64,000 nt of DNA from Chloroflexota bacterium (GCA_965218195.1 OZ244593.1:3061413-3125412); one strand, 5' to 3'. Shown: positions 43,568 through 61,353, counted from the first letter of the stretch. A program made the numbers and translations. Notes: generated by a model from the sequence alone, not told the origin.

Positions 43568-44768
43568 TGACCCTGCCCCCAACTTACCCTCACTCATAAG
43601 TAGAATCTTTTCAGGTTATGGCCCCAATTGGGGCGGGCTGCAAACTGGTTGGGTGTGAGCCCATCCAGGCTCGTGTGCGGGCGTGTTGTGTTGTAGTCGT
43701 ACCTCCATTCCGCGATGATCCGCCGCGCTTCGGCCAGGCCGGCGAAGAGATGTTGGTTGAGGCACTCGTCGCGCAGGCGGCCGTTGAAGCTCTCGACAAA
43801 GCCGTTTTGCATGGGCTTGCCCGGTGCGATGTAGTGCCAGCCAACGCCGCGTTCCTGCTGCCAGCGCAGGATAGCGTTTGAGGTGAGCTCGGTGCCGTTG
43901 TCGCTGACCAGCATGCGGGGGCGGCCCCGCAGCTCGACGATGCGGTCCAGCTCCCGAGCCACGCGGACGCCAGACAGCGATGTGTCGACGACGAGGGCGA
44001 GGCACTCGCGGCTGAAGTCGTCCACCACCGCCAGGATGCGGAACCGCCTGCCGTCGGCCAATGCATCCGCGACGAAATCGAGCGACCAGCGCTGGTTGCG
44101 GTTCCAGGGGAGCAGCAGCGGGGCACGCGTGCCGAGCGCCCGCTTGCGCCCGCCTCGCTTGCGCACCGTGAGCCGTTCCTCGCGATAGATGCGATAGAGC
44201 TTTTTATGATTGAGCCGGATGCCTTCCCTGGCCAGCAGGATGTGCAGACGGCGGTAGCCGAACCGTCGGCGCTGCTCGGCCAATTCCCGCAACCGCTTGC
44301 GGATGCCGGCGTCGTCCGGCCGCCTCGATTCATAGCGCTAAGTCTTCGGATCCATCCCGACAAGAGCGCAGGCACGGCGCTGCGAGTGACTAGTCTCCGT
44401 CATCGCCCAGGCCGCGGCCTTCCTCCGCAATCTGGGCGTTAGAAGTTTTTTGCAAGTAGCTCGCGCAGCGTCGCCACATCCAGCATCGATTCCGCCAGCA
44501 GCTTCTTCAGGCGCCGGTTCTCATCCTCCAGCCCCTTCAGCTTCCTGGCGTCTGATACCTCCATGCCGCCGTACTTGGACCGCCACTTGTAAAACGTCGC
44601 GCCGCTGACCCCGTACTTGCGGCAGAGCTCTGCGGCTGGCAACCCCGCCTGCTGCTCTTTGAGGATGCCGATGATCTGTTCCTCGCGTTACCTGCTCCGT
44701 CTCATGTCCGTCTCCTCCCATTGAACGGACTCTACTCAAAATCGAGGGCATTTTCGGGGGCAAGGTCA
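43568..44768 (-). mobile_element. IS3-family element copy 2 (1201 bp, about 98-99% identical to copy 1), inactivated by two nonsense mutations.
   Basis: The ends are the same as copy 1. orfA has TAT to TAA (..SR*R.. at 44685 region; copy 1 has SRYR). orfB has TAC to TAG (KT*R at 44330 region; copy 1 has KTYR). No target-site duplication is visible. Confidence 0.8.
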
Positions 44769-45163
44769 CTGGCTAGAGAGAAATTCCTTTCGTTGATCAC
44801 TGATCTGAACATAGGCGGCAAGCCGTTGGGAACAATTCAAGTTGAGAGAGACCTTTTGATTGAACAGCTTCATTCAACGTATCGCGGTGCTCCCAATACT
44901 ACGTCTCGGGCATATGAAAAAGCACAGAAGGCTCTTAAGCGGGATGAAGAAATGACATTTTCTGATGACGAGATCGACGCATTTCTACCAAACGAACTTA
45001 GAAGAAGCTAACGACGCCCTGCTGCGCCATCTCTACTCTCAACTTGAGTCGGGCGCGAGCAACGTTTCAAGGACTTGCACCGGAACGACGGTTGACCGCT
45101 TTGCAAATCCCTTACGCCCTCGACAACTAGAACCACTAAGTAGCTGAATTGTTGCGGTCGGCC

Positions 45164-47989
45164 TTACAAACGCCGGTTAGACACCACGGGTTCTGAGGCT
45201 AAGAGGTCGCGGAGCTTGCTCAGATTGGGCAGTGCCAGGATTTCGGAGATTCCGTCGTCCAAGGACTGCCGCGCCGGGCAATGCGCCATACCCGGCAGGC
45301 GTTCGAACTCGGCTTCAGCCAGTTGGTCGAACAGGTCCGACAGGCCGTGAAGCCGTGAGGTCGAAATTTCCCGCAGGTCCAGGACGGGCAGTTCTGAGAG
45401 ATCGGCCTTTTTCATGGCGACCCAGCCGCCTTCCGTGCTGGTCCGCTGGGCCAGAATGGTCAACAGGCCAAGGCTGGAATTCAGCCAAACCGCCAGCGCC
45501 TTCTCATGCGATACGACTTCAACCCGGACGGGCCACCAGACGTTTGAAAGGACTCGCATTTTGGACTTCATGGCGACGACTCTGGCGGTGTCGAGCCGCA
45601 GCCGTTCGGCGACGAGGAGTCGACCGGATTGCCGCCAGAGGCGTTCACCGTAACCTGGCTTTTGTCCGCCTTTTGGCCGTATCAATGGTGACAGATAAAC
45701 GTCAGGTGAGCATATGAGAGACCTCCGTTGCTCCGTATCGTGTCCCTCGACCATCGGGTAAGCAGTCGGAGAACTGGTCCTACTATATCCGTCGACGAGC
45801 CGACGTCTGTCGGGGCCGATTTGACCGAGCTCACCGAGCCGGTACAGCGCAATGTTGGCGGTATCTTCCTCACCCGGTACCCACACTACGCCGTCGTCGA
45901 GCAGGCTGAGGGCGCAGCGGGTTACATCGGCGCGAGCGAACTGCACGCCTGACCATTTCTTTCCCGCGAACTTCGATTCGGGAATCGAAACCATTTCGCC
46001 GACGTGCCGGCCGTCCACTTCCAGCAGCGCCGCGCCCGTTCCCTCGAGATTCGCCGGCGTCGTGGTGGCGATGGCCTGAGCCATCCCGGGCACATCCGAC
46101 ACGCCGTCCGGGTTCCGCCAGAGGTTGACGAAGGTGCTGCGACGCTCAACATTGACGTGTTTCTCAGGGCGGCGCGTAGCAATAAGCAGCGCCTCGGAGA
46201 GGTCGGTGCTGTCCGAAAAGTTCCAGCGCAGCGGATCGTGCGACGTAATCACCATGTCGAGGGCGAAGTCATGCTCGATTAGGGCGCGCGTCTGCCGCCA
46301 CGAGGGGCCGGTACATACGGTGGCGGGCAGCACCAGCGCCAGGCGTCCCTCGCCGGGCCGCAGCCTGGGGACCGCCGCCGCAACGAATGCGGCGCCGAGT
46401 CCGGCGGTGGCTGATGCCTGCCTTGATCTAAGGCGACGCGACAGCTCGCTTTGAAGTTTTCGCCGGTCCGCTGCGGGCAGGCTGCCGAACAGCAGGTTGC
46501 CGCCCACGGAGCGCGTGAATGGCGGGTTCATTATCGCCAGGTCCAAGTCCGGCAGCGTGGCGGTCGCACCCTCTTCCACACCCCGAGAACCGCCGCCGGA
46601 CACCCTTCCGGGTTCCCTGGTGGCTACTCGCATCTCCTCGGCGGACAGCGCGAATTGCACCGGTACGTGGGTCTCTCCCAGGAATTCCAGCGAGCCCAGA
46701 GACACCTTCGAGCCTTCAGCCCCCAGGGGCATTACGTAGAGATTCATGCGGTCGAACTGTATGTCCGGGTTCAGCATCGCCAGGCTGGTGGCGGCGAAAT
46801 GTACGGCGGAAAGCTGAACGTCGTAGCCGTGCAGGGCCTGCTCCACCATGGCTTTGTGCAGCTCGGGGGCGTTTTGGCCGCCGGCGTCGGAGTGCCGGCG
46901 CTCGACCTCGGCGGCCACCGCCATCAGCAAGGTTCCAGTGCCGCAAGCCAGGTCGGCCACGTTGAGGGATGCCGGAAATTCGTGGTCGCTCCAGTCGACG
47001 TGCGAGGGCCAGTCGTGAAACACCAGCCGGGAAAGCAGCGTGGCCGCCGGCACCGACGTGTAATAGGCGCCGGTGAACTTGGCGTCGGTCAAGAGCGTAT
47101 GGAACAGCCGCCCGGATAAATCGTGCCCCGCCAAATGACGCGTGTCTTCCATAGCCCTGACCAACGGTACGATGACCGGCGTCCGGATCTCGTCCGGCCC
47201 GTCGCCGAGCACGTCAAGGATGTTGGACGCCAACTCGAAGACCGGCACGTAGTCGATGTCGTCGCAGATGGAGCGCCAGGCCCAACGGAGTCCGGGAAGG
47301 CCATGCCCCAACGCTTCGCCGACGGTCGGAACGTCCTCATTAGCGGCGGCGAGACGGTCCTGGAAAGCGAGAGCGTTGAAGAGCACCAAACACCCGATGC
47401 GCAGGGCCGCGGCGCGGTCCCTTTCGTGATCGGTGCTGGCGATAATGTCGGCGATGCGACGGGATATCCGGGCGTGTTTGGCTATTTGTTGCGCCGCCTG
47501 TTCCAGCCCGTACCCAACGGCGGTGGCGGCGGCCACCACCCGGTCCACGCCTTCCAGTTCCAATAGAAGGGTACGCAGGTGATCGGCAAGCTCGGCTGCC
47601 GACCCTCGCCGGACGCGGCGCTCTGGCGCAATCCCGCCACGAGAGCCATGCAGCCACCATTGGAGGTCAGTGGCGGCCTCGAGGTTCGAGCGTGTGTTCT
47701 CCGTGTACTTGAGCCTGTCGGGATAGAGAACGCCAATCATTCCAAGAGCTTCGGGGAAATCTTGCAGACGTTCTTCGAGCTGCTCTTCCAGGAGGCTCGC
47801 CGCCCCCTCCCACTTGCATTCCAGGATGACTAGGTCGCCGCTTCGCAGCTCGACCCGGACATCGGGCGCGCCCTTCCGGCTGCGGCGCTCCCCCCTGGCC
47901 GATATGCCGCGCTCACGGAGCAACTCGGCTAGAAGGACATTTACGCCTTCCTCACGAATAGTTTCGGGATCGCTCTGTCGAGTGGCCAT
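45164..47989 (-). CDS. Fused restriction-modification-type protein (941 aa): an N-terminal PD-(D/E)xK nuclease motif plus a gamma-class N6-adenine DNA methyltransferase (type IIG-like).
   Basis: The nuclease core is GAPDVRVELRSGDLVILECKWEG (D...E-C-K). MTase motif I is VADLACGTGTLL. Motif IV is IMNPPFTRS. The long C-terminal region is a presumed target-recognition domain. Confidence 0.7.
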   Translation of the reverse strand: MATRQSDPETIREEGVNVLLAELLRERGISARGERRSRKGAPDVRVELRSGDLVILECKWEGAASLLEEQLEERLQDFPEALGMIGVLYPDRLKYTENTRSNLEAATDLQWWLHGSRGGIAPERRVRRGSAAELADHLRTLLLELEGVDRVVAAATAVGYGLEQAAQQIAKHARISRRIADIIASTDHERDRAAALRIGCLVLFNALAFQDRLAAANEDVPTVGEALGHGLPGLRWAWRSICDDIDYVPVFELASNILDVLGDGPDEIRTPVIVPLVRAMEDTRHLAGHDLSGRLFHTLLTDAKFTGAYYTSVPAATLLSRLVFHDWPSHVDWSDHEFPASLNVADLACGTGTLLMAVAAEVERRHSDAGGQNAPELHKAMVEQALHGYDVQLSAVHFAATSLAMLNPDIQFDRMNLYVMPLGAEGSKVSLGSLEFLGETHVPVQFALSAEEMRVATREPGRVSGGGSRGVEEGATATLPDLDLAIMNPPFTRSVGGNLLFGSLPAADRRKLQSELSRRLRSRQASATAGLGAAFVAAAVPRLRPGEGRLALVLPATVCTGPSWRQTRALIEHDFALDMVITSHDPLRWNFSDSTDLSEALLIATRRPEKHVNVERRSTFVNLWRNPDGVSDVPGMAQAIATTTPANLEGTGAALLEVDGRHVGEMVSIPESKFAGKKWSGVQFARADVTRCALSLLDDGVVWVPGEEDTANIALYRLGELGQIGPDRRRLVDGYSRTSSPTAYPMVEGHDTEQRRSLICSPDVYLSPLIRPKGGQKPGYGERLWRQSGRLLVAERLRLDTARVVAMKSKMRVLSNVWWPVRVEVVSHEKALAVWLNSSLGLLTILAQRTSTEGGWVAMKKADLSELPVLDLREISTSRLHGLSDLFDQLAEAEFERLPGMAHCPARQSLDDGISEILALPNLSKLRDLLASEPVVSNRRL

Positions 47990-48391
47990 TGTCGAAATTG
48001 CCTGTCAAAAAGAGTAGATGGACTCTACGTCAGTCAAGGTTTCGCGGTCGGCTTCGATACTCAACCTTTCGCGAACGGCGCGCAAGTCTATTCGTACGGC
48101 AACATCCGCGCTGGGCGGCTTAGGTGACGGGGCGCGTATATCAGTTTCGTTCCGGGGAACGTCCGCTCGGCGATGCCCGGAGCGGCGATTCTAGGGCTGG
48201 GCTGGTTCCCCCTTTTGTACCTTCGGGGGGCGTCCGCGCTTAGGCGGCGAGAACAGACGAGAAAGCGAGGCAATCAGCCAGGGGCGGCGGTTACATAGTG
48301 GACCTCCGGCTGATGCTCAGCTACGCGGATGCGCTCGATTATGGAAATCATGCGATCGGTAGGACTCCCTATCGGCTGCGCCGATTACAAG

Positions 48392-49198
48392 TCAGGCTTC
48401 CAACTGCCGCGAATGCTTCAAGGCGAAATCCTCTTCCGGGGAACGGACGAGCCTCTTTCGGCCAATGACCGCAAAATAGAACAGACGGACGGCAAACAAG
48501 ACCGCGCAGCCATAGATGCCTACCCTGTAGTCCGGGTTCATTAAGAGAAAGGGTAATGTGACGGGCGCGATTGCGGCGGGCGCAATCGCGCCCGCGTTAC
48601 CCAGGGGGCTGATATACGGACGCTCGATCTTCGGAAACCGCTTCCGCAGTCGGACAAAGCAGATCATCTGCATGACGTAGGCGATGACCGCGCCGAAAAC
48701 CGCCATGTTCAACAGCACGGCCCCAACCGGCACTCCTTTGCCGAGCCAACTATCGCCAAACTCAATCAGGAGAGCTACCAGATACCCGATCATGGAGCCT
48801 GCAATCAACGCCAAGTGTGGCGTCTTGGTTTTGGATTGAGTCACCGAAAGCCGCTGTGGGAAGTAACCTGCCCTCGACAACCAGTAGATGCGTCGGCCGT
48901 AGGCATAGATGATCGCGTGAAAACTAGCGACCGGGCCGGCGACCGCTGCCAGCCCCAAAACCGATGCGCCAAGTCCTCTCCCAAAGATTGTCTTGAAAGC
49001 CAGTAGCAGCGGTTCGTCGGACGCTCCAACTGCGGACGCTCCCGGCGCGACGCCGCCCTTGACAAGTCCGGTGGCGGTCAGGAAGTGGCGGACCACGGTG
49101 GTGATGTTGGCTTCGGGTTCGGCCCGGTTGTGCCGCCGCAAAATCTCAGCGGCCGCGTCCGCGCAGATCGGATCGTTGAGATCGATCTGCTTGGACAT
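48392..49198 (-). pseudogene. C-terminal portion of an APC-superfamily amino-acid/ethanolamine-type permease. The N-terminal half is missing.
   Basis: Typical terminal TM segments (...IIYAYGRRIYWLSRAGYFPQ...VIAYVMQMICFVRLRKRFPKIERPY) are present. Only about 200 aa of the roughly 450-aa family length remain, and the first 60 aa are unrelated. Confidence 0.5.
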
Positions 49199-49441
49199 TG
49201 CGGAGCAGTCCCGTCAGCACACTTCAACTATGAAGAGCGGCTTCAGATTAGCCGAACTTCCGGTTGAGCACCCTCGGACAGAACGAAGGGACCAATCCAC
49301 ACGCCGTATCAAGCTCAGCGCCGGCGTTTGAAGTTGATCGTCTTTTCCTGCCCGCAAAGGCGGGACAAAGGAGTTTGCTATCGACTTAGCCTCTAAGTCG
49401 GGACTGTAGTAATCGCACCGTCCTATGCCGAGCGCGCGCAG

Positions 49442-50671
49442 TCAGGCGGCGGCCCGCACCGCCTTCGCCTCGTCCCGCAGTCGCTTCACCCTTTCGGCTA
49501 AGTCGCGGACTCGATCTAGAACCTCGTCGAGCCTCCCCGTCAGATCGAGCGCCGCTACGTCCAGCCGCTTGTTGGAGTGCCTGACACGGTAGGTGCCCTC
49601 GTTCGCCTCGCCCTGAGCGTAGATCAGCAGTCCGCCCGGCAAATCTAGCGCGGTGACGTATGCGAGAAGCTGGTACAAGTCCGTGTTGGGCACTCTCTCG
49701 CTGGTGATGTTCTTGTATTTAGCGTCCCCCACGAATAGGCAGGATCGTCCGTCCCACCAGGTCAGGTCGGGCCTGAGTCGTATGCCGTCCTCCTTATCGA
49801 GACTGTCTATGGCCTTCTCGAGGAACACGCGGTCGGAGACTTGCAACGCCTCCCGCAGCGCCTGTGTCACGAACTCCTGGAAGACGTCGTTCATGTCCAT
49901 CAGGAACCCGGATGCACGCACCTCACCACGACCGGACTCATACGCGCTGTGCCGCAACACGAGCCGCGACAGCGCCACCACCTCGCGATAGTGCCCGTTC
50001 AGTCGGTCGAATCGGACCTCCGGCAACGCGTTAGGCGCAAACTCGACCAGCGAGACGTTGGCGAGCATCCCCGCAATCCGCCCCAGCTCTTTCCGCGCCG
50101 CAGGCGATCGCAGCCGCATCCGGCCCAGCCGGTAGACCGCCGCCTTCACCAGCCGGTTCGCCAGGACGTCGTCCGTGAACTCGTCGTACCTCACTTCGAC
50201 CGGCACCGCGATGCCGAATCTCCGCCGTATCTGCTCGTCGAACCTGATCCGACCGCGTACGGTTTGCAGAGCCTCCTCCTCCACAACGTATCCGTGCAAA
50301 AGCCCGCGCGAGAACGCCCTTCTGGCGGCGGAGACAAGCGCAAGCGCCAGCACATCCGGCATTGCATATTCACGCGGGTAGTCGAACTGTTGGCGCTGAG
50401 GCTTGAACTTACTCATCGCGTAGCACGCAAGCGAGAGCAGCTGTGGAATCTCGATCTTTGGCTCGATCAGCACCGACAGGTCGCCAATCTCGATCGCGCC
50501 CACGGTCGAACCGGGAGTCACTTGGTAGGCTCCCTCCTTGCCCACGACGGGCTGGATTGTGAGAGATGGCAACGCCTGCAGCAGCACATCGTGCTCGGCG
50601 ACCGCGAGCTCATGCTCGCTGGTGGCGTACTCCTTCAGGTCGATTTCACGCATCGGTCGGGCCGTCGTCAT
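49442..50671 (-). CDS. McrC-like PD-(D/E)xK endonuclease subunit (pair 1).
   Basis: It is 409 aa with the motif LFVGDAKYK (D-x-K-Y-K, typical of McrC). It sits immediately downstream of, and overlapping, the McrB-like gene. Confidence 0.75.
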   Translation of the reverse strand: MTTARPMREIDLKEYATSEHELAVAEHDVLLQALPSLTIQPVVGKEGAYQVTPGSTVGAIEIGDLSVLIEPKIEIPQLLSLACYAMSKFKPQRQQFDYPREYAMPDVLALALVSAARRAFSRGLLHGYVVEEEALQTVRGRIRFDEQIRRRFGIAVPVEVRYDEFTDDVLANRLVKAAVYRLGRMRLRSPAARKELGRIAGMLANVSLVEFAPNALPEVRFDRLNGHYREVVALSRLVLRHSAYESGRGEVRASGFLMDMNDVFQEFVTQALREALQVSDRVFLEKAIDSLDKEDGIRLRPDLTWWDGRSCLFVGDAKYKNITSERVPNTDLYQLLAYVTALDLPGGLLIYAQGEANEGTYRVRHSNKRLDVAALDLTGRLDEVLDRVRDLAERVKRLRDEAKAVRAAA

Positions 50672-53006
50672 CGGCTCTGTCGGTATCGCCTGCTTCCCAT
50701 AGCTTTTCGAGGTCGAACTCGCCGAGGCGGTCGCCTTGCCCGAAGAGCAGCTCCTCGATGTACGGAAGCACGCTGTGCTTCCAGATGCGCCTGACGGCGT
50801 CCTCGTCCAGGTCCTCCTTCATGAAGTAGCTCGGCCCTATCGCGGCGTGCCGGTCGTCCCTCAACTTCTCGTTGGCTCGGTCTACGACATCGGCCACCCA
50901 CGCCATGCCCGGCGCCTTCTCCCTCAGCCAGCGCCGTAGCACCCCTTTGATGGGTTCCTCGTCCGGGTGGAACTCGACGAAGTTGAATCGGCGACGCAGC
51001 GCCAGATCGACCAGCGCGATCGAGCGGTCGGCCGTGTTCATCGTGCCGATGATGTAAAGGTTGTCCGGCAGCTCGAAAGTCTCCCCACTGTTCCTCTGGT
51101 ATTGGAGGCGTATCGCTTCGTCACGGTACTCCAGCAGGAAATACAGTTCCCCGAACACCTTGGCGACGTTGCCGCGATTGATCTCGTCGATCAGGAGGAA
51201 ATGCCTCTCGTCCGGCTCTCCCCGTGCACGCCTGCCGGCCTCAAGCAGCGGCCCGTCCGTCAGCTCGAACCCGGGCTGACCGCCTCTCAGTGTGGGGCGG
51301 AAGCCCTGCACGAAGTCTTCGTAAGCATAGGATGGATGTAACTGCACGAGATCGACCCGATCGTCCGCTCCCGCGAGATGCCTCGCTAACTTCCGCGCAA
51401 CATAGGTCTTGCCCGTTCCAGGCGGTCCCTGGAAGATGACCTGCTTCTTGTCCTCCAGCAGTTTCTCGATGTTCCCAAGGAAGTCCGCGGTGAGATGGAG
51501 TTCAGCCGCTAGCGCATCGAGGTCATCGGGCGGTGGGGGAGGCGGTGAAATGATGGTCCCTGGCATTCCCCAGACCACGGACTGCGCGTCAAGTCGATGG
51601 CGTAGCTCAAGCCCCCGCTCAGCCGCCTCGTCGATGAAGCGGTCGAGGAATATGAGCGCATGCTCGTAGACGGCAGCCTCGTCCGCCTCGCCCTCGGGTC
51701 GACGGTATTCCGTGCTGTCGTATGCCTTGTTGAACACGCCAACCCGGTACGGCGGAAACTGCTCGACGTCCAGCCCCATCAGCAGCACCGAAATCAAATT
51801 CGTGCGGTTCCCGGTCGCGCCTCTCAACGCAGAGCGTGGGACCCCGCTGCTGAAGCCGCGAATCCGTTCCGTGATCGTCGAGTCGTCTCGCGACCACAAC
51901 GCCTCGAGCTCGCTCAAGGCTTGTTCCGAATAGTCAGCGCACCACCGCGTGAAATCACTCTGAAGCTGCCAGGCAATGGGGTGGCCCGGTCTGGTCTTCA
52001 GCGCGCGCTTCAACACCTCCGGCCAGTCTTCGGCGCGGGAGACAACGGCATTACGCGCAGAGGCGAGGTCCCGACCCATTTCAAGCTTGTAGCCGATCTC
52101 CTCAATCTCCATTCGACCGGAGTCGACGTAGCTCCTTGCACGCTCGACAAACTGATCCCAAGGGTCGGATGTCGAAGACCGCCAACGCTTCGATACCTCG
52201 CCGTCGTCGTAGAAGTCGAAATCCCTGCCTAGCTCGTCCTCAAGCCCTCGACGTATCTGTACCAGTTTGCGGTCAGGGTCCTCGGTCGGCTCTCTAACGA
52301 GATACGCGAATCTCTCGGTGATCTTGTTCTTGTGGTCGCCGCTCAGGATTGCCTCGAACGTGTCGCCGTGGACGAGATGCAGTAGTGTCGCTCGCGCAAC
52401 GGCGCGGCTGTTCCGGGGACCGGTCCGCAGCGGGCCGCGCCAATCCACATCCATGACGAACTTCTTGAACTCCCAAGCAGCTTCCGGGTCCCCGGAGTCG
52501 AGCAAGCGCTCGACCGGCCCTCGCTCCTTCCACTGCTCCACGAACTCGATCAAGTAGCCAGGCAGAAGTCCGGGACTCTGACTGAAATGTCGATTTGCAC
52601 TGACGAGGCCGGGTCTAAGGCCGTCGACGCAGTCATCCGGTATTGCCATAGGTAGCGGCGACCATCCCAGCACCCGTTCGATTTCTTGCCTCTTCCATGT
52701 GCCTTTGGCGGCTTGCCGAGCAACGAGATAGGAGGCGTAAAGAACTTCTCCCATCAACTGGTAGACCTCGGCTGGACTGCCTGTCAATAGCCGCTCCAAG
52801 CTCGCAAAGAACGCGTGCTTCGATTGTCCGTTCCACTCTCCCGGTCTATCCAAAAACCGCCCGCGCAACTCACTGAGCCACTGCCTCGACCAGATCGGTT
52901 CCCCCACCGTGAAGAGCGAGTCGTCGGATCTCAACGCGCGGTCGACCCATGTGCTCGCGGCAGCGTAGACCGTCTCTCGCCCGCCTCCAGTCTTTCTGCC
53001 ACTCAC
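50646..53006 (-). CDS. McrB-like AAA+ GTPase (786 aa) with an about 480-aa N-terminal domain of unknown type (pair 1).
   Basis: It has QVIFQGPPGTGKTYVA (P-loop), LLIDEINRGNVAKVFGEL, and NLYIIGTMNTADRSIALVDLALRRRF (the McrB signature MNTADRS plus the sensor). Confidence 0.8.
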   Translation of the reverse strand: MSGRKTGGGRETVYAAASTWVDRALRSDDSLFTVGEPIWSRQWLSELRGRFLDRPGEWNGQSKHAFFASLERLLTGSPAEVYQLMGEVLYASYLVARQAAKGTWKRQEIERVLGWSPLPMAIPDDCVDGLRPGLVSANRHFSQSPGLLPGYLIEFVEQWKERGPVERLLDSGDPEAAWEFKKFVMDVDWRGPLRTGPRNSRAVARATLLHLVHGDTFEAILSGDHKNKITERFAYLVREPTEDPDRKLVQIRRGLEDELGRDFDFYDDGEVSKRWRSSTSDPWDQFVERARSYVDSGRMEIEEIGYKLEMGRDLASARNAVVSRAEDWPEVLKRALKTRPGHPIAWQLQSDFTRWCADYSEQALSELEALWSRDDSTITERIRGFSSGVPRSALRGATGNRTNLISVLLMGLDVEQFPPYRVGVFNKAYDSTEYRRPEGEADEAAVYEHALIFLDRFIDEAAERGLELRHRLDAQSVVWGMPGTIISPPPPPPDDLDALAAELHLTADFLGNIEKLLEDKKQVIFQGPPGTGKTYVARKLARHLAGADDRVDLVQLHPSYAYEDFVQGFRPTLRGGQPGFELTDGPLLEAGRRARGEPDERHFLLIDEINRGNVAKVFGELYFLLEYRDEAIRLQYQRNSGETFELPDNLYIIGTMNTADRSIALVDLALRRRFNFVEFHPDEEPIKGVLRRWLREKAPGMAWVADVVDRANEKLRDDRHAAIGPSYFMKEDLDEDAVRRIWKHSVLPYIEELLFGQGDRLGEFDLEKLWEAGDTDRADDDGPTDA

Positions 53007-53183
53007 CGTTGTCCTCCCGCCGCTGTCTCTAGCCGTCTCGCCTCAGCATCGCTGATTGAACCCACATCGTACTGTCGTTGTGTACCACGAAGGCTCATCA
53101 GCCCCTCGTATCCACACCGTGGAGATGGACCTGCGGCGCCCGGGGGGAAACGCATGCGTCCACGGCCTGAAACCGAGCAGAGA

Positions 53184-53219
53184 GATTCTCAGTTCGTGCG
53201 GTCCAGCGAACTGAGAATC
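53184..53219. promoter_or_regulatory. 13-bp perfect inverted repeat (GATTCTCAGTTCG-N10-CGAACTGAGAATC) between the two McrBC-like pairs.
   Basis: Read directly. It lies downstream of mcrC-like 2 and upstream of mcrB-like 1. No convincing U-tract follows it, so it is either an operator or a weak terminator. Confidence 0.4.
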
Positions 53220-53412
53220 AATGCCGGCCGAGCCGAGGCAACAACAGATTTAGCCACCCTATTCACACATAGGGTTTGCTATTGCCGCCGACCAGAGCAT
53301 TGGACAGGTGGACCTTCTTCCTCCTCAGGAGCCTGCTAGTGCCACCGCCCAACACCTGCTCACCATCTTCTCTGGTTCAAATCGCGGCCTGCGAGCCGTC
53401 GAGGGCAGCGGG

Positions 53413-54624
53413 TCAGGCTACGGTCCGAAGCACCCTTGCCGCATCCCGCAGTGCCTTTACCCTGATCGCCACTTCCCGGACTCTTGCGAGAACCTCGTCG
53501 AGCGTCTCCGAGAGGTCGAGACCTGCGACTTCCAATCGCTTGCCGGAGTGTCTCACGCAGTAGGTTCCCGCTTCGGCCTCGCCCTGCGCATATATCAACA
53601 ACCCGCCCGGCAGGTCGAGCGCAGTGACGTAGGCCAGCAGCTGGTATAAGTCCGAGTTCGGCACTCTTTCGCCGGTCAGGTTCTTATATTTCGCATCGCC
53701 CACGAATAGGCAGGATCGCCCTTCCCACCATGTCAGATCGGGCTTGAGTGGTACGGCGCCTTCTTCATCAAGGCTGTTTATCATCTTCTCGAGGAACACT
53801 CGGTCCGAGAGCCGCAAGACCTCCCTCAGCGCCTGTGCGACGAACTCTTGGAATACCACGTTCATGTCCATCAGGAATCCGGGGGCGCGCACTTCCCCGC
53901 GATCGGCCTCATACGCGCTGTGTCGCAGGACGAGCCGCGAGAGCGCTACCACCTCACGGTAGTGCTCGTTGAGCCGGTCGAATCGGAGCTCCGGCACCGC
54001 GTTGGGCGGATACTCGACCACCGAGACGCTGTCGAGCATGCCCGCTATACGCCTCAACTCCCGACGCGCCTCCCTCCATCGCAACCTCATCCGGACCAGC
54101 CGTTCCACCGCCGCCTTCACAAGCCGGTTCGCCAGTATGTCCTCGGTAAACTCGTCGTACCTGACCTCGACCGGCACGCTGACGCCGAATCTACGGCGTA
54201 TCTGCTCGTCGAACCGGATTCGCCCTCGCACCGTGTGGAGTGCCTCTTCCTCCACTACGTAGCCGTGGAGCAGGCCGCGCGAAAACGCTCGCCGGGCGGC
54301 AGACGCGAGGGCTAGTGCCAGCACATCCGGCAGCGCATACTCGCGCGGGTAGTCGAACTCCTCACGGCGCATTTGAAGTTTGCCCATCACGTAGCACACG
54401 AGCGAGACCAACTGGGCAATCCCGATCTTCGGCTCGATCAGCACGGATAGGTCGCCGATCTCGATCGCACCAACCGTGGAGCCGGGTGTGATTCTGTAGG
54501 TTCCTTCTCTGCCCATCACAGGCTCGATCGTCAGACTCAGCGGTGCCTCCTGTAGAGCATCACGCTGAGCGATCGAGAGCGCATGTTCGCTGGATCTGTA
54601 CTCTGTTAGGTTGAGTTCATCCAT
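53413..54624 (-). CDS. McrC-like endonuclease subunit (pair 2), a diverged paralog of 49442-50671.
   Basis: It is 403 aa with the same LFVGDAKYK motif. It is collinear with pair 1 and I estimate about 75% identity by eye. Confidence 0.75.
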   Translation of the reverse strand: MDELNLTEYRSSEHALSIAQRDALQEAPLSLTIEPVMGREGTYRITPGSTVGAIEIGDLSVLIEPKIGIAQLVSLVCYVMGKLQMRREEFDYPREYALPDVLALALASAARRAFSRGLLHGYVVEEEALHTVRGRIRFDEQIRRRFGVSVPVEVRYDEFTEDILANRLVKAAVERLVRMRLRWREARRELRRIAGMLDSVSVVEYPPNAVPELRFDRLNEHYREVVALSRLVLRHSAYEADRGEVRAPGFLMDMNVVFQEFVAQALREVLRLSDRVFLEKMINSLDEEGAVPLKPDLTWWEGRSCLFVGDAKYKNLTGERVPNSDLYQLLAYVTALDLPGGLLIYAQGEAEAGTYCVRHSGKRLEVAGLDLSETLDEVLARVREVAIRVKALRDAARVLRTVA

Positions 54625-56989
54625 CGCTCAGCCCGTGGACGTCGCCAGGTCCGTCGGGGTCTTTTGCTCTCCTCAGGCTCTCTAGGTCGAACTCGCCCAG
54701 CCGGCCGCCTTCCCCGAAGAGACGCTCCTCGATGTACGGCAGCACGCTGTGCTTCCAAATGCGCTGGACAGCGTCCTCGTCGAGGTGGTCCTTCATGAAG
54801 TAGCTCGGCCCAATGGCGGCATGCCGATCGTCCGCGAGCTTCTCATTGGCCCGGTCGACCACATCGGGCACCCATGCCATGTCGGGTGCCTTTTCCCTCA
54901 GCCGCCGGCGCAACACGCCCTTGATGGGCTCTTCGTCCGGGTGGAACTCGATGAAGTAGAACCGGCGGCGCAGCGCCAGGTCCACGAGCGCGATCGAGCG
55001 GTCCGCCGTGTTCATTGTCCCGATGATGTACAGATTGCCGGGTAAGGCGAAGGTCTCTCCGCTGTGTCTCTGATACTGGAGGCGCATCTTCTCTTCGCGG
55101 TACTCCAGCAGAAAGTACAACTCACCGAAGACCTTAGCTACGTTGCCACGGTTGATTTCGTCGATGACCAGGTAGTGCTTCCCTTTATCCCCTCGCGCGC
55201 GCTCGGCGGCCTCAAGCAGCGGACCGTCTATCAACTCGAATTTCAACTCACCGTCCGTCAGCGTGGGACGAATGCCACGCACGAAGTCTTCGTAAGCGTA
55301 GGAGGGATGTAGCTGCACGAGTGTTACCCGGTCCTCTGAGCCCGCCAGATACCTCGCAAGCTCCCGGGCAACGTACGTCTTCCCTGTTCCGGGCGGCCCC
55401 TGGAAGATGACCTGCTTCTTTTCATCAAGCAGTGATTCAATGTTCCCGAGGAAGTCGGCCGTCAGGTAGAGTTCGACAGCGAGCCTTTCGATGCCGTCGG
55501 GCGGAATTGGCGGCGGTACTGGACCGTGCCCTTGCATTCCCCAAATCACAGACTGCGCATCTAGCCGATGGCGCAACTCAAGCTCCCGCTTGGTGGCCTC
55601 GTCGATGAAGCGGTCGAGGAACGCGAGCGCGTGTTCATAAACCGAGGCCTCGTCCTTCTCATCTCGCGGCCGACCGTATCCGGTGCTGTCATACGCCTCA
55701 TTGAACACACCTACCCTGAACGGCGGATACTGTTCGACATCCAGCCCCATCAGGAGCACCGATACCACGTTCGCGCGATTCCCGGTCGCGCCTCTCACAG
55801 CCGAGCGAGGGAGCCCGTTGCTGAAACCGCGAATGCGTTCCACCAGCGTCGAATCGTCTGGCGACCACAACTTGCGCAACGCGCTGCGCGCCTCCTCCGA
55901 GTAGTCGGCGCTCCATCGATTGAAGTCGCTTAGAAGCTGCCATGCTATGGGATGGCCCGTCCTGGTCCTGAGAGCGTGCTTCAGCACGTCTTGCCACCCG
56001 TCGGTTTGGTCGAGAACGGCGCCACGTGCCAGGGCGAGGTCCTGCCCCATTTCGAGCTTGTATTTGATCTCCTCAGGATCCAATCGACCGGAGTCGACGT
56101 AGCTCTTTGCGCTTCCAACAAACACATCCCAACGGTCGGCGGTCGAAGACCGCCAACGCTTCGATACCTCGTCATCGTCGTAGAAGTCGAAGTCCCGACC
56201 CGTTTCAGCCTCAAGTCCCCGGCGAATCTGCGCCAATTGTCGGTCAATGTCATCCGTCCGCTCCGTTACGAGATATGCGAACCTCTCAGCGATCTCGTTC
56301 TTGTGATCGACGCTCAGGATTACCTCGAAACTATCGGGGTGAACCAAATGCAGTAGGGTCGCCTGCTGCATCGCCCGGCGATTCGAGGGACTACTGCGCA
56401 GCGGACCACGCCAATTGACTCTCGCGACGAATTCCTTGAACTCCCAGGCGGCTTCAGCATCCGTGGAGTCGAGCAAGCGGAGGTCTGCCCCTCGCTCCTT
56501 CCATTGCTCCACAAACTCGATGAAGTAGCCGAACTGGAGTCCGAAGTTGGCTGTGAAGGACGGTCCCGGGTGTACGAGGCCAGGCGCTAACCCGTCGACG
56601 CAGTCATCCGGCACGCTCGTAGGCGTCGGCGACCATCCGAGCACTTGCTCAATGCGTTCCCTCTTCTGTCTCTCGCTCATTCCACCTCGCCCTCGGTGAA
56701 AGACGACGAGATACGCGACGTAAATCACTTCTCCCATCAACTGGTATACCGGGGCTGGACTACCCTCCAAGAGCCTCTCTAACTTCCCGAAGAAGTCGCT
56801 TCTCGGTAGCCGGTTCCACTCGTCGGGTCGGTCCAAGAAACGACTGCGTAGCTCACCAAGCCACCGCGTCGACCAGACCAGCTCCCCGGGCGTGAAGAGC
56901 GAGTCGTCGGCTCTCAAAGCGCGGTCGACCCATCTGCGGGCAGCCGCGTAGACCCGCTCCTGCCCGTCTCCCGCCTTTGTGCTACTCAC
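54617..56989 (-). CDS. McrB-like AAA+ GTPase (790 aa), a diverged paralog of 50646-53006 (pair 2).
   Basis: It has the same P-loop, DEINRGN and MNTADRS motifs. Its N-terminal about 480 aa are about 65-70% identical to pair 1 by eye. Confidence 0.8.
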   Translation of the reverse strand: MSSTKAGDGQERVYAAARRWVDRALRADDSLFTPGELVWSTRWLGELRSRFLDRPDEWNRLPRSDFFGKLERLLEGSPAPVYQLMGEVIYVAYLVVFHRGRGGMSERQKRERIEQVLGWSPTPTSVPDDCVDGLAPGLVHPGPSFTANFGLQFGYFIEFVEQWKERGADLRLLDSTDAEAAWEFKEFVARVNWRGPLRSSPSNRRAMQQATLLHLVHPDSFEVILSVDHKNEIAERFAYLVTERTDDIDRQLAQIRRGLEAETGRDFDFYDDDEVSKRWRSSTADRWDVFVGSAKSYVDSGRLDPEEIKYKLEMGQDLALARGAVLDQTDGWQDVLKHALRTRTGHPIAWQLLSDFNRWSADYSEEARSALRKLWSPDDSTLVERIRGFSNGLPRSAVRGATGNRANVVSVLLMGLDVEQYPPFRVGVFNEAYDSTGYGRPRDEKDEASVYEHALAFLDRFIDEATKRELELRHRLDAQSVIWGMQGHGPVPPPIPPDGIERLAVELYLTADFLGNIESLLDEKKQVIFQGPPGTGKTYVARELARYLAGSEDRVTLVQLHPSYAYEDFVRGIRPTLTDGELKFELIDGPLLEAAERARGDKGKHYLVIDEINRGNVAKVFGELYFLLEYREEKMRLQYQRHSGETFALPGNLYIIGTMNTADRSIALVDLALRRRFYFIEFHPDEEPIKGVLRRRLREKAPDMAWVPDVVDRANEKLADDRHAAIGPSYFMKDHLDEDAVQRIWKHSVLPYIEERLFGEGGRLGEFDLESLRRAKDPDGPGDVHGLSDG

Positions 56990-57091
56990 CGTTGTCCTCC
57001 CCCAGCTGTCCCCGGGTGCCGCGCTTCATCAACGCTTATCGACCCCACATCGTACTGTTCTGGGAGCTCTAGTTCCGTCCAAACATAGTGC

Positions 57092-58096
57092 TTGATAATT
57101 CCGCAAACCAGAGCAAGGGTCGTGTGGATGTTTTCCTCTCCGGAGTCCGCCATGCCTACCGCTCAATCTACCCTGCCCACTGTCTTCTCTGGCTCTGCTT
57201 CCGGCTGGGATGCCTCGCTCTACGCCTTCCTGGCCGAGAAGCAACGCCGCTCGGGCTCGCTCCGTACTCCTGACTCTTACTACCGCACTCTCCGACACTT
57301 CTTCGGCTCTACCCAGAAGTCGCCGAATCAAGTGTCTGCTCAGGATGTCTTTTCGTTCGCCCATGGGGTCGGCCTCTCGGGGCGTGAACCGTCTCCCACC
57401 ACCGTCGGCGCTCGCATCTGCTGTCTCTCTTCGTTCTATAAGTTCCTCATCCGGCTGGATCTGCTTGCCTCCAATCCCTGCGATCCGGTGGAACGCCCCA
57501 AGCCTCGTCCCAGCGCACCAAGCGGCCTCTCCGCTGCACAGGTGCAGCAGCTCCTTCAGGTCATCCCCGATACCGTCAAGGGCAGGCGTGACCTCGCCAT
57601 CGTCCTCACCCTGGTCCTAACCGGCAGACGCAGGTCCGAAGTCGTCAACCTGACTGCCGGCGATATCGCCTTCGATGACTCGGCCGCCTTCTACCGCTAC
57701 GTCGGCAAGGGCGGTCTGCGCGGCCGCCGGGAACTCCCTCGTCCGGCCCTCGCCGCCATCGTTCGGTCACTCGCCGATGTCGGCAAGGACATCCACTCCA
57801 TGCAGCCCGCCGAGTCGCTTTGGCAAGCGGGCGCTGGTCCCACCGGCGTCTCCAGCGCCACCTTCTACAACCGCTTCCGCACCTACCTCCAGAAGGCCGG
57901 TCTGCCTCCTTCCGGCGTCCACGTCCTCCGCCACTCCGCCGCCAAGCTCCGCCGCGATGTCGGCGAGTCGGTTGAGTCGGTAAGCCAGTTCCTCGACCAC
58001 AGTTCGCTCGCGGTCACCACCACCTACCTCCGCAGACTGGAAGGGCAGCGCGATGCCGCCTGGCAGGGCGTCGCAACCGTTATCGGCGTGAGCTAG
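57092..58096 (+). CDS. Tyrosine-type site-specific recombinase/integrase (XerC/D-like).
   Basis: It has the C-terminal catalytic pattern ...LTGRRRSE...HVLRHSAAKLRRDVG...LDHSSLAVTTTYL (R...HxxR...Y). The start may be at 57131 or 57152. Confidence 0.8.
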   Translation: MIIPQTRARVVWMFSSPESAMPTAQSTLPTVFSGSASGWDASLYAFLAEKQRRSGSLRTPDSYYRTLRHFFGSTQKSPNQVSAQDVFSFAHGVGLSGREPSPTTVGARICCLSSFYKFLIRLDLLASNPCDPVERPKPRPSAPSGLSAAQVQQLLQVIPDTVKGRRDLAIVLTLVLTGRRRSEVVNLTAGDIAFDDSAAFYRYVGKGGLRGRRELPRPALAAIVRSLADVGKDIHSMQPAESLWQAGAGPTGVSSATFYNRFRTYLQKAGLPPSGVHVLRHSAAKLRRDVGESVESVSQFLDHSSLAVTTTYLRRLEGQRDAAWQGVATVIGVS

Positions 58097-58258
58097 CTCG
58101 CCCCGCCTACGGCGTTCTTCGCCTCGCAGGTCTAGAATCTGCTCCGGTCGGGCGGCAGCGCATTCCCCTTCCACCAATGCACGTATCACTGCCGTCCCGC
58201 CTTATGGGCGGATCGGTGTCTACGCTGTTGGCCTCTACCATCAGGATGCCGGTCCGCC

Positions 58259-59932
58259 TTGACCTCTTCGCGCCTCCCGAGCGTTCATACGTCCCGCTTC
58301 AACTCCCTCGCCCTGGAGGTCCTTGTGCCCGATCCCATCCTCCGCATCGCCACCTACGCCCGCGTCTCCTCCGACGAACAGCGTGACCGTCATACCGTCC
58401 GCAATCAACGCTCGGCTCTATCCCGCCGTCTGGGTTCCGAGCCGGGTGTTTTGGTCTTCAAGCATTACGAGGATGACGGCGTCTCTGGCACTGTCCCTCT
58501 CGAAGACCGTCCTTCGGGGCGCGCGCTTGCGCGTGATGCTCGCGCCGGTCGTTTCTCCCAGATCTGGGTCGTCCGCGCCGATCGCCTCGGTCGCGACGCC
58601 TTCGAGCTGCTCCGCATCTGGAGAGTGTTCGAGTCGATCGGAGTCTCCCTCCGCGCCACCGACGAGAACATCGACGATCCCTTCTACTTCGATATCCACG
58701 CCGTCATCGCCGCCAACGAGCGCCGCAAGTTCCTCGAACGTTCCGCAGAGGGCATGAACCGCGCCGCCAGCGAAGGCCGCTATACCGGCGGCATCGTCCC
58801 GCTCGGCTACTCGGTCTCCGGCGATCGTGGCTCCCGTCGCCTCGTCCCGGACGACTCCATCATGTGGTCCGGCCTCTCCGCCGCAGACGTTGTCAGACGC
58901 ATCTATCACCATCTGGCCTCGGACGGCTGGACCTGTCCGCGTATCGCTTCCGCCTTCAACTCGCTCGGCATCCCCACCTCCTATCGCCGCGACGGTCGCG
59001 GCGTTCGCGGCAAACGCACCCAGGGCCTCTGGCGCTCCGGCCATATCCGCAATCTCGTCGTCAATCCCGTCTACAAGGGCATCCTCCAGTACGGACGACG
59101 ATCTACCAAACCGAATGGTCGTTCTGTCATTTCTTCTTCCGTTCCCCCACTGGTTTCCGATGATGTCTGGAACGCCGCTCTCTCCACTCTCAAGCGCAAC
59201 CGCGCCTTCCCACGCAACTCGTGCCACTCCTACCTGCTCCGCTCCCTCATCCGCTGTGCCGTTTGCGGCCTGACCTTCTGCGGAACATGGGCCAGAAATA
59301 AGCCTCGCTACAGGTGCAACGGCTCCATGGCCCACCGCGGCCCTCTCCAAGGCAAGTGCATCGGCGCCTCCATTAAGGGCGAGAGGTTGGAGCAGGCGGT
59401 CTGGTCGGATGTCTCCCGCTTCCTTATCGACCCCTCCGACCTCGTGGATGAGCTCCTCGCCGAAGGCTCGGACATCGAGAATCACGCCGTCGCCGAGGCC
59501 GAGCGCGCCTCGCTGCTCGACGCTCGCAACGCGGCTCAGCTTCGCCGCAAGCGCGCCATCGACCTCTATACCCGCGGCAAGCTGTCCGACCTAGAGTTCG
59601 ACGCCGTGGCCGCAGACGTGGAACAGGAACTCAAGAGGCTGGACGAGCGGCTAGCCGATCTCGAACCCGATGACGACCCGCTTGACGACGCCGTCTCCGA
59701 GGATGTGCTGGCGGAGATCCGTGAACGCCTGGAGGCGGACCTCTCGGACGCCGAGCGCCGCGAGATCGTTCAGTTGCTGGTGCGCCGGATCACCGTCCAC
59801 ACCACCCTCCCCGACCGCGGCCCCAAGCACGTCCGCGTCGTCATCGACTACCGCTTCCCGCCTGTAGTCCAAACTCACACGGGCATCGCTGCGAGTCACA
59901 GCTACACCCTCCGCCGTGTTATCGCCGCCTGA
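58259..59932 (+). CDS. Large serine recombinase (resolvase/invertase N-domain, recombinase domain, zinc ribbon and coiled-coil).
   Basis: IATYARVSSDEQ (catalytic Ser region), VVRADRLGRD and a CAVCG...YRCNG zinc ribbon are present. It is about 540-557 aa. The start is possibly the GTG near 58325. Confidence 0.85.
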   Translation: MTSSRLPSVHTSRFNSLALEVLVPDPILRIATYARVSSDEQRDRHTVRNQRSALSRRLGSEPGVLVFKHYEDDGVSGTVPLEDRPSGRALARDARAGRFSQIWVVRADRLGRDAFELLRIWRVFESIGVSLRATDENIDDPFYFDIHAVIAANERRKFLERSAEGMNRAASEGRYTGGIVPLGYSVSGDRGSRRLVPDDSIMWSGLSAADVVRRIYHHLASDGWTCPRIASAFNSLGIPTSYRRDGRGVRGKRTQGLWRSGHIRNLVVNPVYKGILQYGRRSTKPNGRSVISSSVPPLVSDDVWNAALSTLKRNRAFPRNSCHSYLLRSLIRCAVCGLTFCGTWARNKPRYRCNGSMAHRGPLQGKCIGASIKGERLEQAVWSDVSRFLIDPSDLVDELLAEGSDIENHAVAEAERASLLDARNAAQLRRKRAIDLYTRGKLSDLEFDAVAADVEQELKRLDERLADLEPDDDPLDDAVSEDVLAEIRERLEADLSDAERREIVQLLVRRITVHTTLPDRGPKHVRVVIDYRFPPVVQTHTGIAASHSYTLRRVIAA

Positions 59933-60099
59933 GCCCAAACACCTCGCCCCTCGACCGTCTCCGGTTCCTACAGCGGCGACAGGTCTCTTTCAGTTCCAGT
60001 TTGCTCAGCTCGATCGCTGCTGAGAAGACACCCCGAAGGCCCGGGTGAGGCTCCGTTCAACCGCCCCCGCTCTTCTTCTGCAATCGCCCGTTCAGCGGC

Positions 60100-60400
60100 C
60101 TGGGCGAGTTATTGGGTTTCCGGATGCCGAGCGACATGCCGCCGCTCGCAGTTGTCGGAGGGAGCGTTCATTGTTGATGCTTACTTTCTATACAAAGAGC
60201 GCCTCGGCTTGGCGTCGAGTTCTGCCGCGCCGGCGACGGCCACATCGCCGCCCGGCTCGCCCCTGTCGCGCCACGGGGCGCCGTACAGAGCTTCGGCGAA
60301 CATGGGCTGCTTTGCGGCGAGTCTGGCCGCACACGCGCGTCACGGGGCGCCTGTTTGCGAGTCCAGCTGGTCATGAACTTGAAGCGCTGAGGTTGGACCT
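60100..60400. mobile_element. Short degenerate IS256-like scrap, homologous to 15600-15944.
   Basis: An about 180-bp alignment CGCCTC(C/G)GCTTGGCGTCGAG(C/T)TCTGCC...GGCGACG.CCACATCGC...CGCGCCAC...TTTGCGAGT is shared with 15722-15900 at about 80% by eye. The reverse translation gives AEALFV / MN.PS fragments resembling the IS256 transposase segment AEAFFT..MNCPS. Confidence 0.35.
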
Positions 60401-60734
60401 GATTGCGCCGTTCGTGCGCCTCCCTCGACGGCCGAACCGCGCTCGATTGGCCTCGCTCCCGCCTACCAACCACTACCAATTCATTTTTGCCAGCAAAGGT
60501 AGGGTTTGCTAGCCGTTGCTAGTCCCCGGACCCGCGCTTTTCGCTAGCTGGACGGCTTCTCGCTGCCTCGTCAATCGCCTGCGCGACCTCGGGGCTCGCT
60601 TCCACCGTCATCCCGACTATACCGCTACGCCGCCCGGATAAGCCGGCCACTCAAAGCACCGGATGTACCGACGACGCCTGCTGCCTTGACCAAGCCACCT
60701 TACTAGTCTAGGTTTCTCGTAAGGAGATGCGCCC

Positions 60735-60977
60735 GTGATCGTCAAAGTCACCTCCAAACGTCAGGTCACCTTCCCCGCCAGAGTCCTCGACGCCCTCGGC
60801 GTCAAGCCCGGCGACCAACTCGAAATACAGCCCGGTCCCGACGGCTTCATCATCCGCCCCCGCCGTATAGACCCAACCCTTCTCGCGCCGCTGCGTGGCA
60901 AGCTACGGCCCACTGACAGTCCCTTCGACCTCCATGCCTTCCGCGATCAGCCCCATGACCCGGCGCTTCGGGATTGA
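60735..60977 (+). CDS. AbrB/MazE/SpoVT-type antitoxin (VapB-like).
   Basis: KVTSKRQVTFPARVLDALGVKPGDQLEI is a SpoVT_AbrB swapped-hairpin motif. It overlaps the downstream PIN gene by about 23 bp. Confidence 0.7.
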   Translation: MIVKVTSKRQVTFPARVLDALGVKPGDQLEIQPGPDGFIIRPRRIDPTLLAPLRGKLRPTDSPFDLHAFRDQPHDPALRD

Positions 60978-61353
60978 TACCTCCATCCTCGTTCGCCTGC
61001 TAACCGGCGAACCCGCCTCCGACTTCGAGTACTGCGTCGCTCAACTGACCCGGCTGGTTGAGGATTCCGCTGCCGAGATCTTCGCCTCCAACCAGGTCAT
61101 CGGTGAAGCCTACGTGGCCGTACAACATCACTACGGCGTAACCAAGGCCGATGCTCGCTCTGGCCTGATCGACGTTCTGCGCAGCGGCCTGGTCGCTCCC
61201 CTCAACGGTTCTACCGTGATCGAAGCGCTGGAGGCTTCTGGCGGCCCCGGCTTGCTCGACCGGCTCATCGCCGACGACTACCGCCGCGTCGGTTTGGAAA
61301 CTCTGACGCTTGATCGCAGGATGTCGGGCCTCCCGCAAGTCAATCTCCTCTAG
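60955..61353 (+). CDS. PIN-domain toxin (VapC-like).
   Basis: It starts MTRRFGIDTSILVRLL (first acidic residue of the PIN fold) and is about 132 aa. It is paired with the upstream antitoxin. Confidence 0.65.
   Translation: MTRRFGIDTSILVRLLTGEPASDFEYCVAQLTRLVEDSAAEIFASNQVIGEAYVAVQHHYGVTKADARSGLIDVLRSGLVAPLNGSTVIEALEASGGPGLLDRLIADDYRRVGLETLTLDRRMSGLPQVNLL

Follow-up and report, generated by a model that had tools for sequence, protein, structure and literature searches.

Why should a single genome carry two McrBC-type restriction modules side by side, and what, if anything, is sensed by the long N-terminal regions of their McrB-like proteins? These questions are raised by a 64,000-nucleotide (nt) stretch from a Chloroflexota bacterium (GCA_965218195.1, OZ244593.1:3061413-3125412; hereafter, the window), in which positions 49442-56989 encode two McrB-like/McrC-like pairs on the minus strand. 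A description made from the DNA alone, referred to here as the sequence-only reading, took them for a tandem, diverged duplication of a type IV restriction operon with a novel N-terminal domain. The results presented below favour a different origin, namely the head-to-tail stacking of two alleles, diverged from each other, of a single mobile defence cassette, with McrBC-like action, a helical N-terminal region acting as base sensor, and the first module of this region providing specificity. Taken as a whole, this best explanation is considered probable, with moderate confidence. Its noteworthy parts are the N-terminal architecture and the modular exchange, the tandem arrangement being less so.

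Two complete McrBC-type pairs

The ORF (open reading frame) map places McrC directly downstream of McrB in both pairs. The first pair comprises McrB-1 (50646-53006; 786 amino acids (aa), GTG start) and McrC-1 (49442-50671; 409 aa), whose genes overlap by 26 nt at the McrB stop, whereas in the second pair McrB-2 (54617-56989; 790 aa, GTG start), with the same architecture as McrB-1, overlaps McrC-2 (53413-54624; 403 aa) by 8 nt. The arrangement and the four lengths are exactly those given in the sequence-only reading. All four ORFs are full length, and the hidden frameshifts considered there were looked for and not found, both McrB copies being alignable end to end with approximately 77 full-length homologues. 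Among public protein entries, P0001 is identical to McrB-1 and P0010 corresponds to McrB-2; the latter gene call is 687 aa long and starts 103 codons too late. The 790-aa form was adopted because of the ORF itself, the homology from residue 1, and a context of ribosome-binding site (RBS) and GTG identical to that of McrB-1.

In both McrB-like proteins, the Pfam family AAA_5 (PF07728) was matched at approximately residues 523-677 (80 and 81 bits), and the precomputed annotation of P0001, P0010 and homologues includes McrB_lid (PF28529). The signatures described earlier were recovered in both copies: Walker A (the P-loop), GPPGTGKT, at residue 527 of McrB-1 and 531 of McrB-2; Walker B, DEINR, at residues 607 and 610, respectively; the NxxD motif MNTADRS, aligned to MNTADRS of Escherichia coli McrB; and RRRF. 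The NxxD motif defines the GTPase clade (PMC11090510). Both McrC-like proteins matched the McrBC family PF10117 (181.7 bits for McrC-1 and 192.6 bits for McrC-2, against a cut-off of 23.9). McrC-1 consists of a DUF2357-type N-terminal part and a PD-(D/E)xK nuclease, whose P-D...D-A-K-Y motif aligns with that of Thermococcus gammatolerans McrC (6ut5_G); the motif is identical in McrC-2, and the DAKYK stretch noted previously is retained in both.

This organization is shared with E. coli K-12 McrBC (EcoKMcrBC), a two-gene operon with McrB upstream, an AAA+ GTPase with Walker A, Walker B, NxxD and McrB lid, and a partner McrC with a PD-(D/E)xK nuclease. The T. gammatolerans McrBC (PDB 6ut3-6ut8) is also clearly homologous, both in the motor (E 6e-39) and in McrC (E 3e-17). 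However, E. coli McrB structures align with residues 504-716 only (E 6e-48), and the NCBIfam equivalog model for E. coli McrB (NF008457) scored 165 and 146 bits against a cut-off of 637, with residues 502-716 alone matching, while the McrC equivalog reached 107 bits against 338. Scores so far under these cut-offs indicate that the window proteins are not orthologues of E. coli McrBC. A PADLOC scan returned generic AAA+ and 'REase_II' matches to the motor only, and the PHROGs matches were likewise generic. The locus contains two complete McrBC-type NTPase/nuclease pairs, both intact, and each most likely works like canonical McrBC: the N-terminal region would bind DNA, the AAA+ domains would assemble a GTP-dependent hexamer, and McrC would dock, stimulate hydrolysis and cut DNA after translocation.

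Columns conserved in the family are largely retained in both McrB copies (McrB-1, 106/113 in the N-terminal and 117/118 in the C-terminal part; McrB-2, 111/113 and 115/118). The pairwise comparison proposed with the sequence-only reading gave protein identities of 73% for McrB and 76% for McrC. Within McrB, the N-terminal 490 aa are 69.6% identical, in agreement with the 65-70% first estimated, and the AAA+/lid part is 80.7% identical, making the N-terminal region the more diverged part of the protein. The ratio of nonsynonymous to synonymous substitution rates (dN/dS) between McrB-1 and McrB-2 was 0.27 in the N-terminal region and 0.12 in the motor, with dS around 0.9, so that purifying selection acts on both pairs. 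Positive selection was rejected for the N-terminal region, where dN/dS did not exceed 0.54 in any 50-codon window. It is very hard to regard one of the pairs as a decaying, non-functional remnant. Cassette 1 has indeed lost its recombinases and methyltransferase (see below), and McrB-1 deviates at 7 of the 113 conserved N-terminal positions against 2 in McrB-2, but the four full-length ORFs with all their motifs, the dN/dS values of 0.12-0.27, and the conserved leader and RBS that pair 1 keeps for itself make this option most improbable.

Probable stacking of mobile cassette alleles

Related loci (n = 86) comprised 85 loci encoding the N-terminal region, obtained in a tblastn survey, and L086, which was examined separately. 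Six close relatives from metagenomic contigs (L001-L005 and L086) share a conserved block in which genes for a large serine recombinase and a tyrosine recombinase accompany a divergently transcribed McrB-McrC, with one McrBC pair each; in the intact form of the cassette (L086, L004 and L005), an Eco57I/PglX-like methyltransferase follows McrC. In the window, the tyrosine recombinase (57152-58096, plus strand; PF00589, XerC/D-like) diverges from McrB-2. Its listed ORF begins at 57092, and the start matching the 313-aa relatives lies at about 57152; tyrosine recombinases 81-87% identical to it adjoin McrB in all six relatives. The large serine recombinase (58259-59932, plus strand; Resolvase, Recombinase and Zn ribbon) is conserved with the cassette in the same six loci.

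The two pairs of the window are not each other's closest relatives. Over 4,021 nt, pair 1 shares 91.3% nucleotide identity with L086, where the cassette is complete and single; the homology ends at 49063 inside the methyltransferase gene. For pair 2, identities to relatives are no more than 76-81%. At the protein level, McrB-1 shares 84% and 81% identity with P0002 and P0003, respectively, versus 73% with McrB-2; trees likewise unite McrB-1 with these two entries, P0002 and P0003, McrB-2 being nearer to P0005 and P0007. In addition, the two pairs are separated by a 340-nt spacer that matches, in a 387-nt alignment (72%), the tyrosine recombinase/McrB intergenic region and the recombinase 5' end of L002, and also positions 57080-57195 of the window. 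This alignment identifies a second tyrosine-recombinase 5'-end relic of about 15-17 codons (53335-53394, plus strand), next to the ancestral recombinase-McrB intergenic region of cassette 1 (53076-53334). Stacked alleles, rather than a duplication in situ, are therefore favoured, because the copies are not closest relatives and a recombinase relic lies between them. Cassette 2 would correspond to 57152-59932 plus 53413-56989, joined to cassette 1 about 17 nt past the McrC-2 stop; cassette 1 would have lost its recombinases, with some 15 codons left, and its methyltransferase, with 46 codons left. L001 and L005 are two such cassettes at separate sites of one 612-kb contig, which makes ectopic recombination between copies plausible.

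The origin put forward in the sequence-only reading, in which a single McrBC operon was simply duplicated in tandem at this site and the copies then diverged there, is in keeping with the layout of the two units as direct, collinear repeats spaced 3,971-3,983 nt apart. Two further considerations weigh against stacking: a duplication with its boundary inside the recombinase 5' end would leave the same relic at 53335-53394, and later gene conversion with other alleles could explain the phylogeny. Nevertheless, the closer relationship of McrB-1 to P0002, P0003 and L086 than to McrB-2, the dS of about 0.9 between the copies and the occurrence of the pair 1 allele elsewhere as a complete single cassette all weigh against this origin. 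Moreover, a single McrC is present in 86/86 related loci, and the B-C-B-C arrangement in 0/86, the closest relatives included. Local duplication is thus considered improbable, and its combination with allelic conversion is rated below stacking. As such, the tandem is nothing unusual, being what cassette stacking ordinarily yields within a defence island. Two McrB genes were found only in L069 (8335-12946) and L078 (10001-14699), where two tandem McrB genes, each encoding module B (see next section) and AAA+, precede one McrC; McrB doubling takes another form in these two members of the family.

As regards mobility in a wider sense, a search of a plasmid collection gave only trivial matches of about 100 nt to AAA ATPases, and no tRNA genes were found in the window as integration targets.

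A two-module helical N-terminal region

McrB-1 comprises module A (residues 1-280; 52167-53006), module B (residues 281-483; 51558-52166), a Pro-rich linker (residues 484-493), disordered in the AlphaFold2 model, and the AAA+ GTPase with its lid (residues 495-778). The model, with a pLDDT (predicted local distance difference test) score of 87 for the full-length protein and 91 for the N-terminal part alone, predicts 25 helices, no sheet and globular domains; many Trp and Leu residues of this large helical region are invariant. The modules are separable, since residues 1-280 and residues 281-483 occur in homologues either singly or together, and no relationship as internal repeats was detectable between them (hhalign probability 0.15%). 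The 585-aa McrB P0019 of L005 (10001-11758), in which module A is joined directly to AAA+ without module B, is a natural deletion variant within the closest clade.

The sequence-only reading had called the N-terminal domain novel and far longer than the E. coli McrB reader. In the present analysis, the region matched no known McrB reader, and searches of Pfam, NCBIfam, PHROGs, PADLOC and PDB sequences yielded no match. Its description as novel stands only in the sense that the region is undescribed in these libraries, as it is by no means rare: a word-indexed search gave more than 931 homologues, and exhaustive phmmer produced 1,723 clusters at 50% identity with E<=1e-3, 296 of them with E<=1e-30. 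Its carriers among species-representative genomes are for the most part Chloroflexota (Dehalococcoidia, SAR202, Caldilineaceae), the remainder comprising some Acidimicrobiia and other taxa.

McrBC motors accept different small reader domains. The reader of E. coli McrBC is a DUF3578/ADAM domain of about 160 aa, and T. gammatolerans McrBC, which illustrates this tolerance of the motor, has a small YTH/EVE-like beta-barrel without similarity to the window N-terminal region. In the proteins studied here, the usual small beta-rich reader would be replaced by a 480-aa all-helical two-module region on a Pro-rich tether. Small readers would have given way to a large helical region that has no name in the libraries searched and is spread over far more than 1,000 protein clusters, most of them from Chloroflexota that have been little studied.

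Among the fold matches of the region, one stood out, a DNA glycosylase, and two more HhH-GPD glycosylases appeared in the match list. Judging from the model, part of the region possibly resembles the Ogg2/HhH-GPD glycosylase fold, a lead and not a demonstrated homology. Several results weigh against it. Dedicated profiles of modules A and B gave no match to Pfam or PDB even at E<=10; hhalign of the modules against EndoIII and Ogg2 sequences, the former serving as a probe only and the latter real, returned probabilities of about 0.1%; Foldseek against PDB and viral structures found nothing significant; and the overlay of GxGxR-9-GLD (GxGxR/GLD/PP) on the Ogg2 HhH-GPD motif was made by eye only. 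The partial resemblance underlies a working model in which the region would be a non-catalytic base-flipping sensor of non-canonical bases, by analogy the same concept as that of the 'iEndoIII' sensors of END nucleases. In those enzymes, an inactivated EndoIII/Ogg domain senses hypermodified phage DNA (PMC12191111; bioRxiv 10.1101/2025.03.31.646159), and the same sensor has been reported fused to a McrB-like GTPase (PMC12191111). However, END/iEndoIII domains were detectable by HHpred against EndoIII and OGG profiles (PMC12191111), whereas the window region is not detectable by hidden Markov model (HMM) or HH searches; in size it also exceeds two HhH-GPD domains and, unlike those sensors, it includes a second module.

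A different function for the helical region has to be weighed here, namely that it is a regulatory, scaffolding or protein-sensing domain and not a base reader, so that the trigger would be unlike that of classical type IV systems; it could, for instance, sense a phage protein or hold the motor inactive. This would agree with the absence of any sequence-level match to a nucleic-acid-binding family, and the invariant Trp and Leu residues could equally form a structural core. To our knowledge, the McrB readers characterised so far are of small size and rich in beta structure, in contrast to the region in question. On the other hand, the region sits where every characterised McrB homologue has its DNA reader, its sole outstanding fold match is a DNA glycosylase, with two more HhH-GPD glycosylases in the list, and its modular allele swapping (see next section) resembles that of target-recognition domains; there is, besides, the published precedent of a glycosylase-fold sensor fused to McrB (PMC12191111). 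A non-reader role is accordingly regarded as unlikely, and DNA sensing is retained as the preferred function. The locus belongs to a large uncharacterised family defined by this two-module, possibly glycosylase-like helical region of McrB. If part of it were indeed a disabled DNA-glycosylase fold, the idea of an inactivated glycosylase as modified-DNA sensor would extend to the McrBC motor, and the two pairs would constitute a natural allele pair for mapping specificity.

Long helical N-terminal extensions are also found in the CoCoNuT systems (CnuB/CnuC), which are McrBC derivatives. CoCoNuT GTPases are characterized by an NxD motif, coiled coils, and extra nucleases or helicases (PMC11090510). 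The window proteins differ in all three respects, with an NxxD motif (NTAD), globular high-pLDDT helical domains and no extra conserved genes, and membership in this group was rejected.

Exchange of module A and target specificity

Comparison of individual alleles revealed sharp changes in divergence along the N-terminal region. Between McrB-1 and the L004 allele, residues 1-280 are 68% identical (dS 0.71), whereas residues 281-483 are 93% identical (dS 0.10) and the motor 94%, with a sharp breakpoint. Conversely, McrB-2 and the L003 allele are 91% identical only at residues 81-165 (dS 0.13), the flanks showing dS of 0.85-1.0, and the C-terminal part of the same L003 protein is approximately 92-95% identical to McrB-1. 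As dS jumps along with dN, these patterns are attributed to recombinational exchange of module A segments between alleles. Recombinational exchange of segments is typical behaviour of the target-recognition modules of restriction systems.

Because it is exchanged between alleles, module A is the best candidate for the specificity determinant, and it probably sets which foreign DNA is attacked; the sharp breakpoints around it amount to a concrete prediction of the part that governs target choice. A difference in target specificity between the two pairs is plausible, and module swapping, a more informative sign in this respect than the dN/dS values, supports it without proving it. With two alleles whose A modules differ, a broader set of DNA would be restricted. 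In its most extended form, this idea would endow Chloroflexota with a mobile and combinatorial set of type IV systems aimed at hypermodified phage DNA, in which an undescribed two-module DNA sensor, made up of an inactivated Ogg2-like base-flipping module and of module A as a recombination-shuffled, HsdS-like specificity cartridge, would be mounted on stacked McrBC alleles moved by serine and tyrosine recombinases. So far-reaching a proposal is put forward as speculative and, as it stands, rather unlikely.

Stand-alone or methyltransferase-protected action

A protein of 1037-1039 aa of the Eco57I/N6_Mtase type is encoded directly after McrC in L004, L005 and L086. In the window, only the first 46 codons of this N6-methyltransferase are left (49061-49198, minus strand; 91% aa identity to the N-terminus of the L004 enzyme), within a chimeric ORF (48392-49198, minus strand) in which the 46 methyltransferase residues are fused in frame to the C-terminal half of an ethanolamine/amino-acid permease. 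Position ~49061 is therefore a deletion or rearrangement junction. In L001, L002 and L003, too, the methyltransferase gene is missing or truncated, McrBC being intact in these loci and in the window. Clustering of 908 flanking ORFs from the 85 surveyed loci revealed no conserved partner other than McrC, and a family-wide methyltransferase partner was rejected on the same survey.

These data bear on whether the system could instead be a methyltransferase-protected McrBC-like system in the style of LlaJI or BsuMI, which would cut unmodified DNA while the Eco57I-like enzyme protects the host. The methyltransferase gene after McrC in the three intact cassettes and the 'REase_II' nature of the PADLOC matches are compatible with such a scheme, and a census of McrBC systems reports whole clades associated with PglX-like methyltransferases (PMC11090510). 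In the family analysed here, however, the association is confined to the closest clade and has been lost repeatedly, the window included; McrBC has remained intact and under purifying selection where the enzyme is truncated or absent, and no methyltransferase is conserved as a neighbour across the 85 loci. In a classical restriction-modification system, such a loss would be lethal. Protection by the cassette enzyme is thus considered very unlikely, and the loss of the methyltransferase with intact McrBC, together with the lack of a conserved partner, makes a stand-alone, modification-dependent (type IV) mode the more likely one, as far as gene content can indicate.

Some doubt on the stand-alone mode comes from a 941-aa protein encoded 1.4 kb downstream of McrC-1 (45164-47989, minus strand), which has an NPPF motif; its NCBIfam matches (MAD2/PglX-like) are only weak, and Pfam gave none. 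The protein is possibly an N6-adenine methyltransferase, of a divergent kind, that serves another defence system; unrelated to the cassette enzyme, it may also be a functional partner of the McrBC pairs, a possibility that counts against a stand-alone mode.

Leader, spacer and cassette ends

The sequence-only reading had drawn attention to a motif shared upstream of both copies. Indeed, the window contains exactly two copies of the 15-mer CCCACATCGTACTGT (53061-53075 and 57044-57058; 0.03 occurrences expected by chance), 55-70 nt upstream of each McrB start. The 15-mer is, however, no special duplicated signal, since the leader that contains it is conserved ahead of McrB in all close relatives. 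Alignment of the McrB-1 leader (53007-53130, minus strand) with that of McrB-2 and of five relatives showed conserved blocks and an RBS (GGGAGGA), the 15-mer being a conserved ACxGGACGATTTGG-like block at the upstream edge of a leader of about 70 nt that ends in GGGAGGA-N4-GTG. The 15-mer is best read, from this conservation, as part of the McrB promoter or leader. A sigma-70 promoter scan gave zero sites, terminator-like sites were at background level, and Rfam produced no match on 48000-61000.

Homology between the two units of the window extends from just beyond each McrC stop up to the 15-mer. The leader and intergenic region of cassette 2 (56990-57151, minus strand) is shortened, lacking approximately 167 nt just upstream of the 15-mer in comparison with cassette 1 and the relatives, which explains why the homology ends at this point. 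No evidence was found for the 15-mer as a recombination site, and no repeat was found downstream of the McrC genes in the window. An integron-like array with the 15-mer as att site was rejected, given that the 15-mer is present in the leader of single-cassette relatives and that the spacer is a copy of the recombinase 5' end and intergenic region, with no hybrid site.

The outer end of the conserved block lies at 60455-60576, a repeat-rich segment present as a single copy in the window (blastn boundaries at 60550-60576) and conserved with L001, L003 and L005. It contains ACTAGCAAC-like repeats, and an inverted CACTACC...GGTAGTG found at this site in relatives has near-matches in the window. 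The segment is a candidate recombinase site or cassette end.

Other genes of the island

The island also includes two large uncharacterised genes: a 1034-aa ORF without Pfam match (33940-37044, minus strand) and a 715-aa ORF (37624-39771, plus strand) whose sole match is a C-terminal SEC-C motif. Beyond the outer end of the conserved block, two small overlapping ORFs of 80 and 152 aa (60735-61353, plus strand) resemble, by eye, an AbrB/SpoVT-type antitoxin and a PIN-domain toxin. Finally, positions 43568-44769 and 41609-42747 are 97.8% and 86% identical in nucleotide sequence, respectively, to parts of L002 (a Chloroflexota metagenome-assembled genome, OZ253578.1) that lie outside its McrBC cassette, and the L002 counterpart of the former overlaps rve-type transposase fragments, indicating that the window genome and L002 share further mobile DNA.

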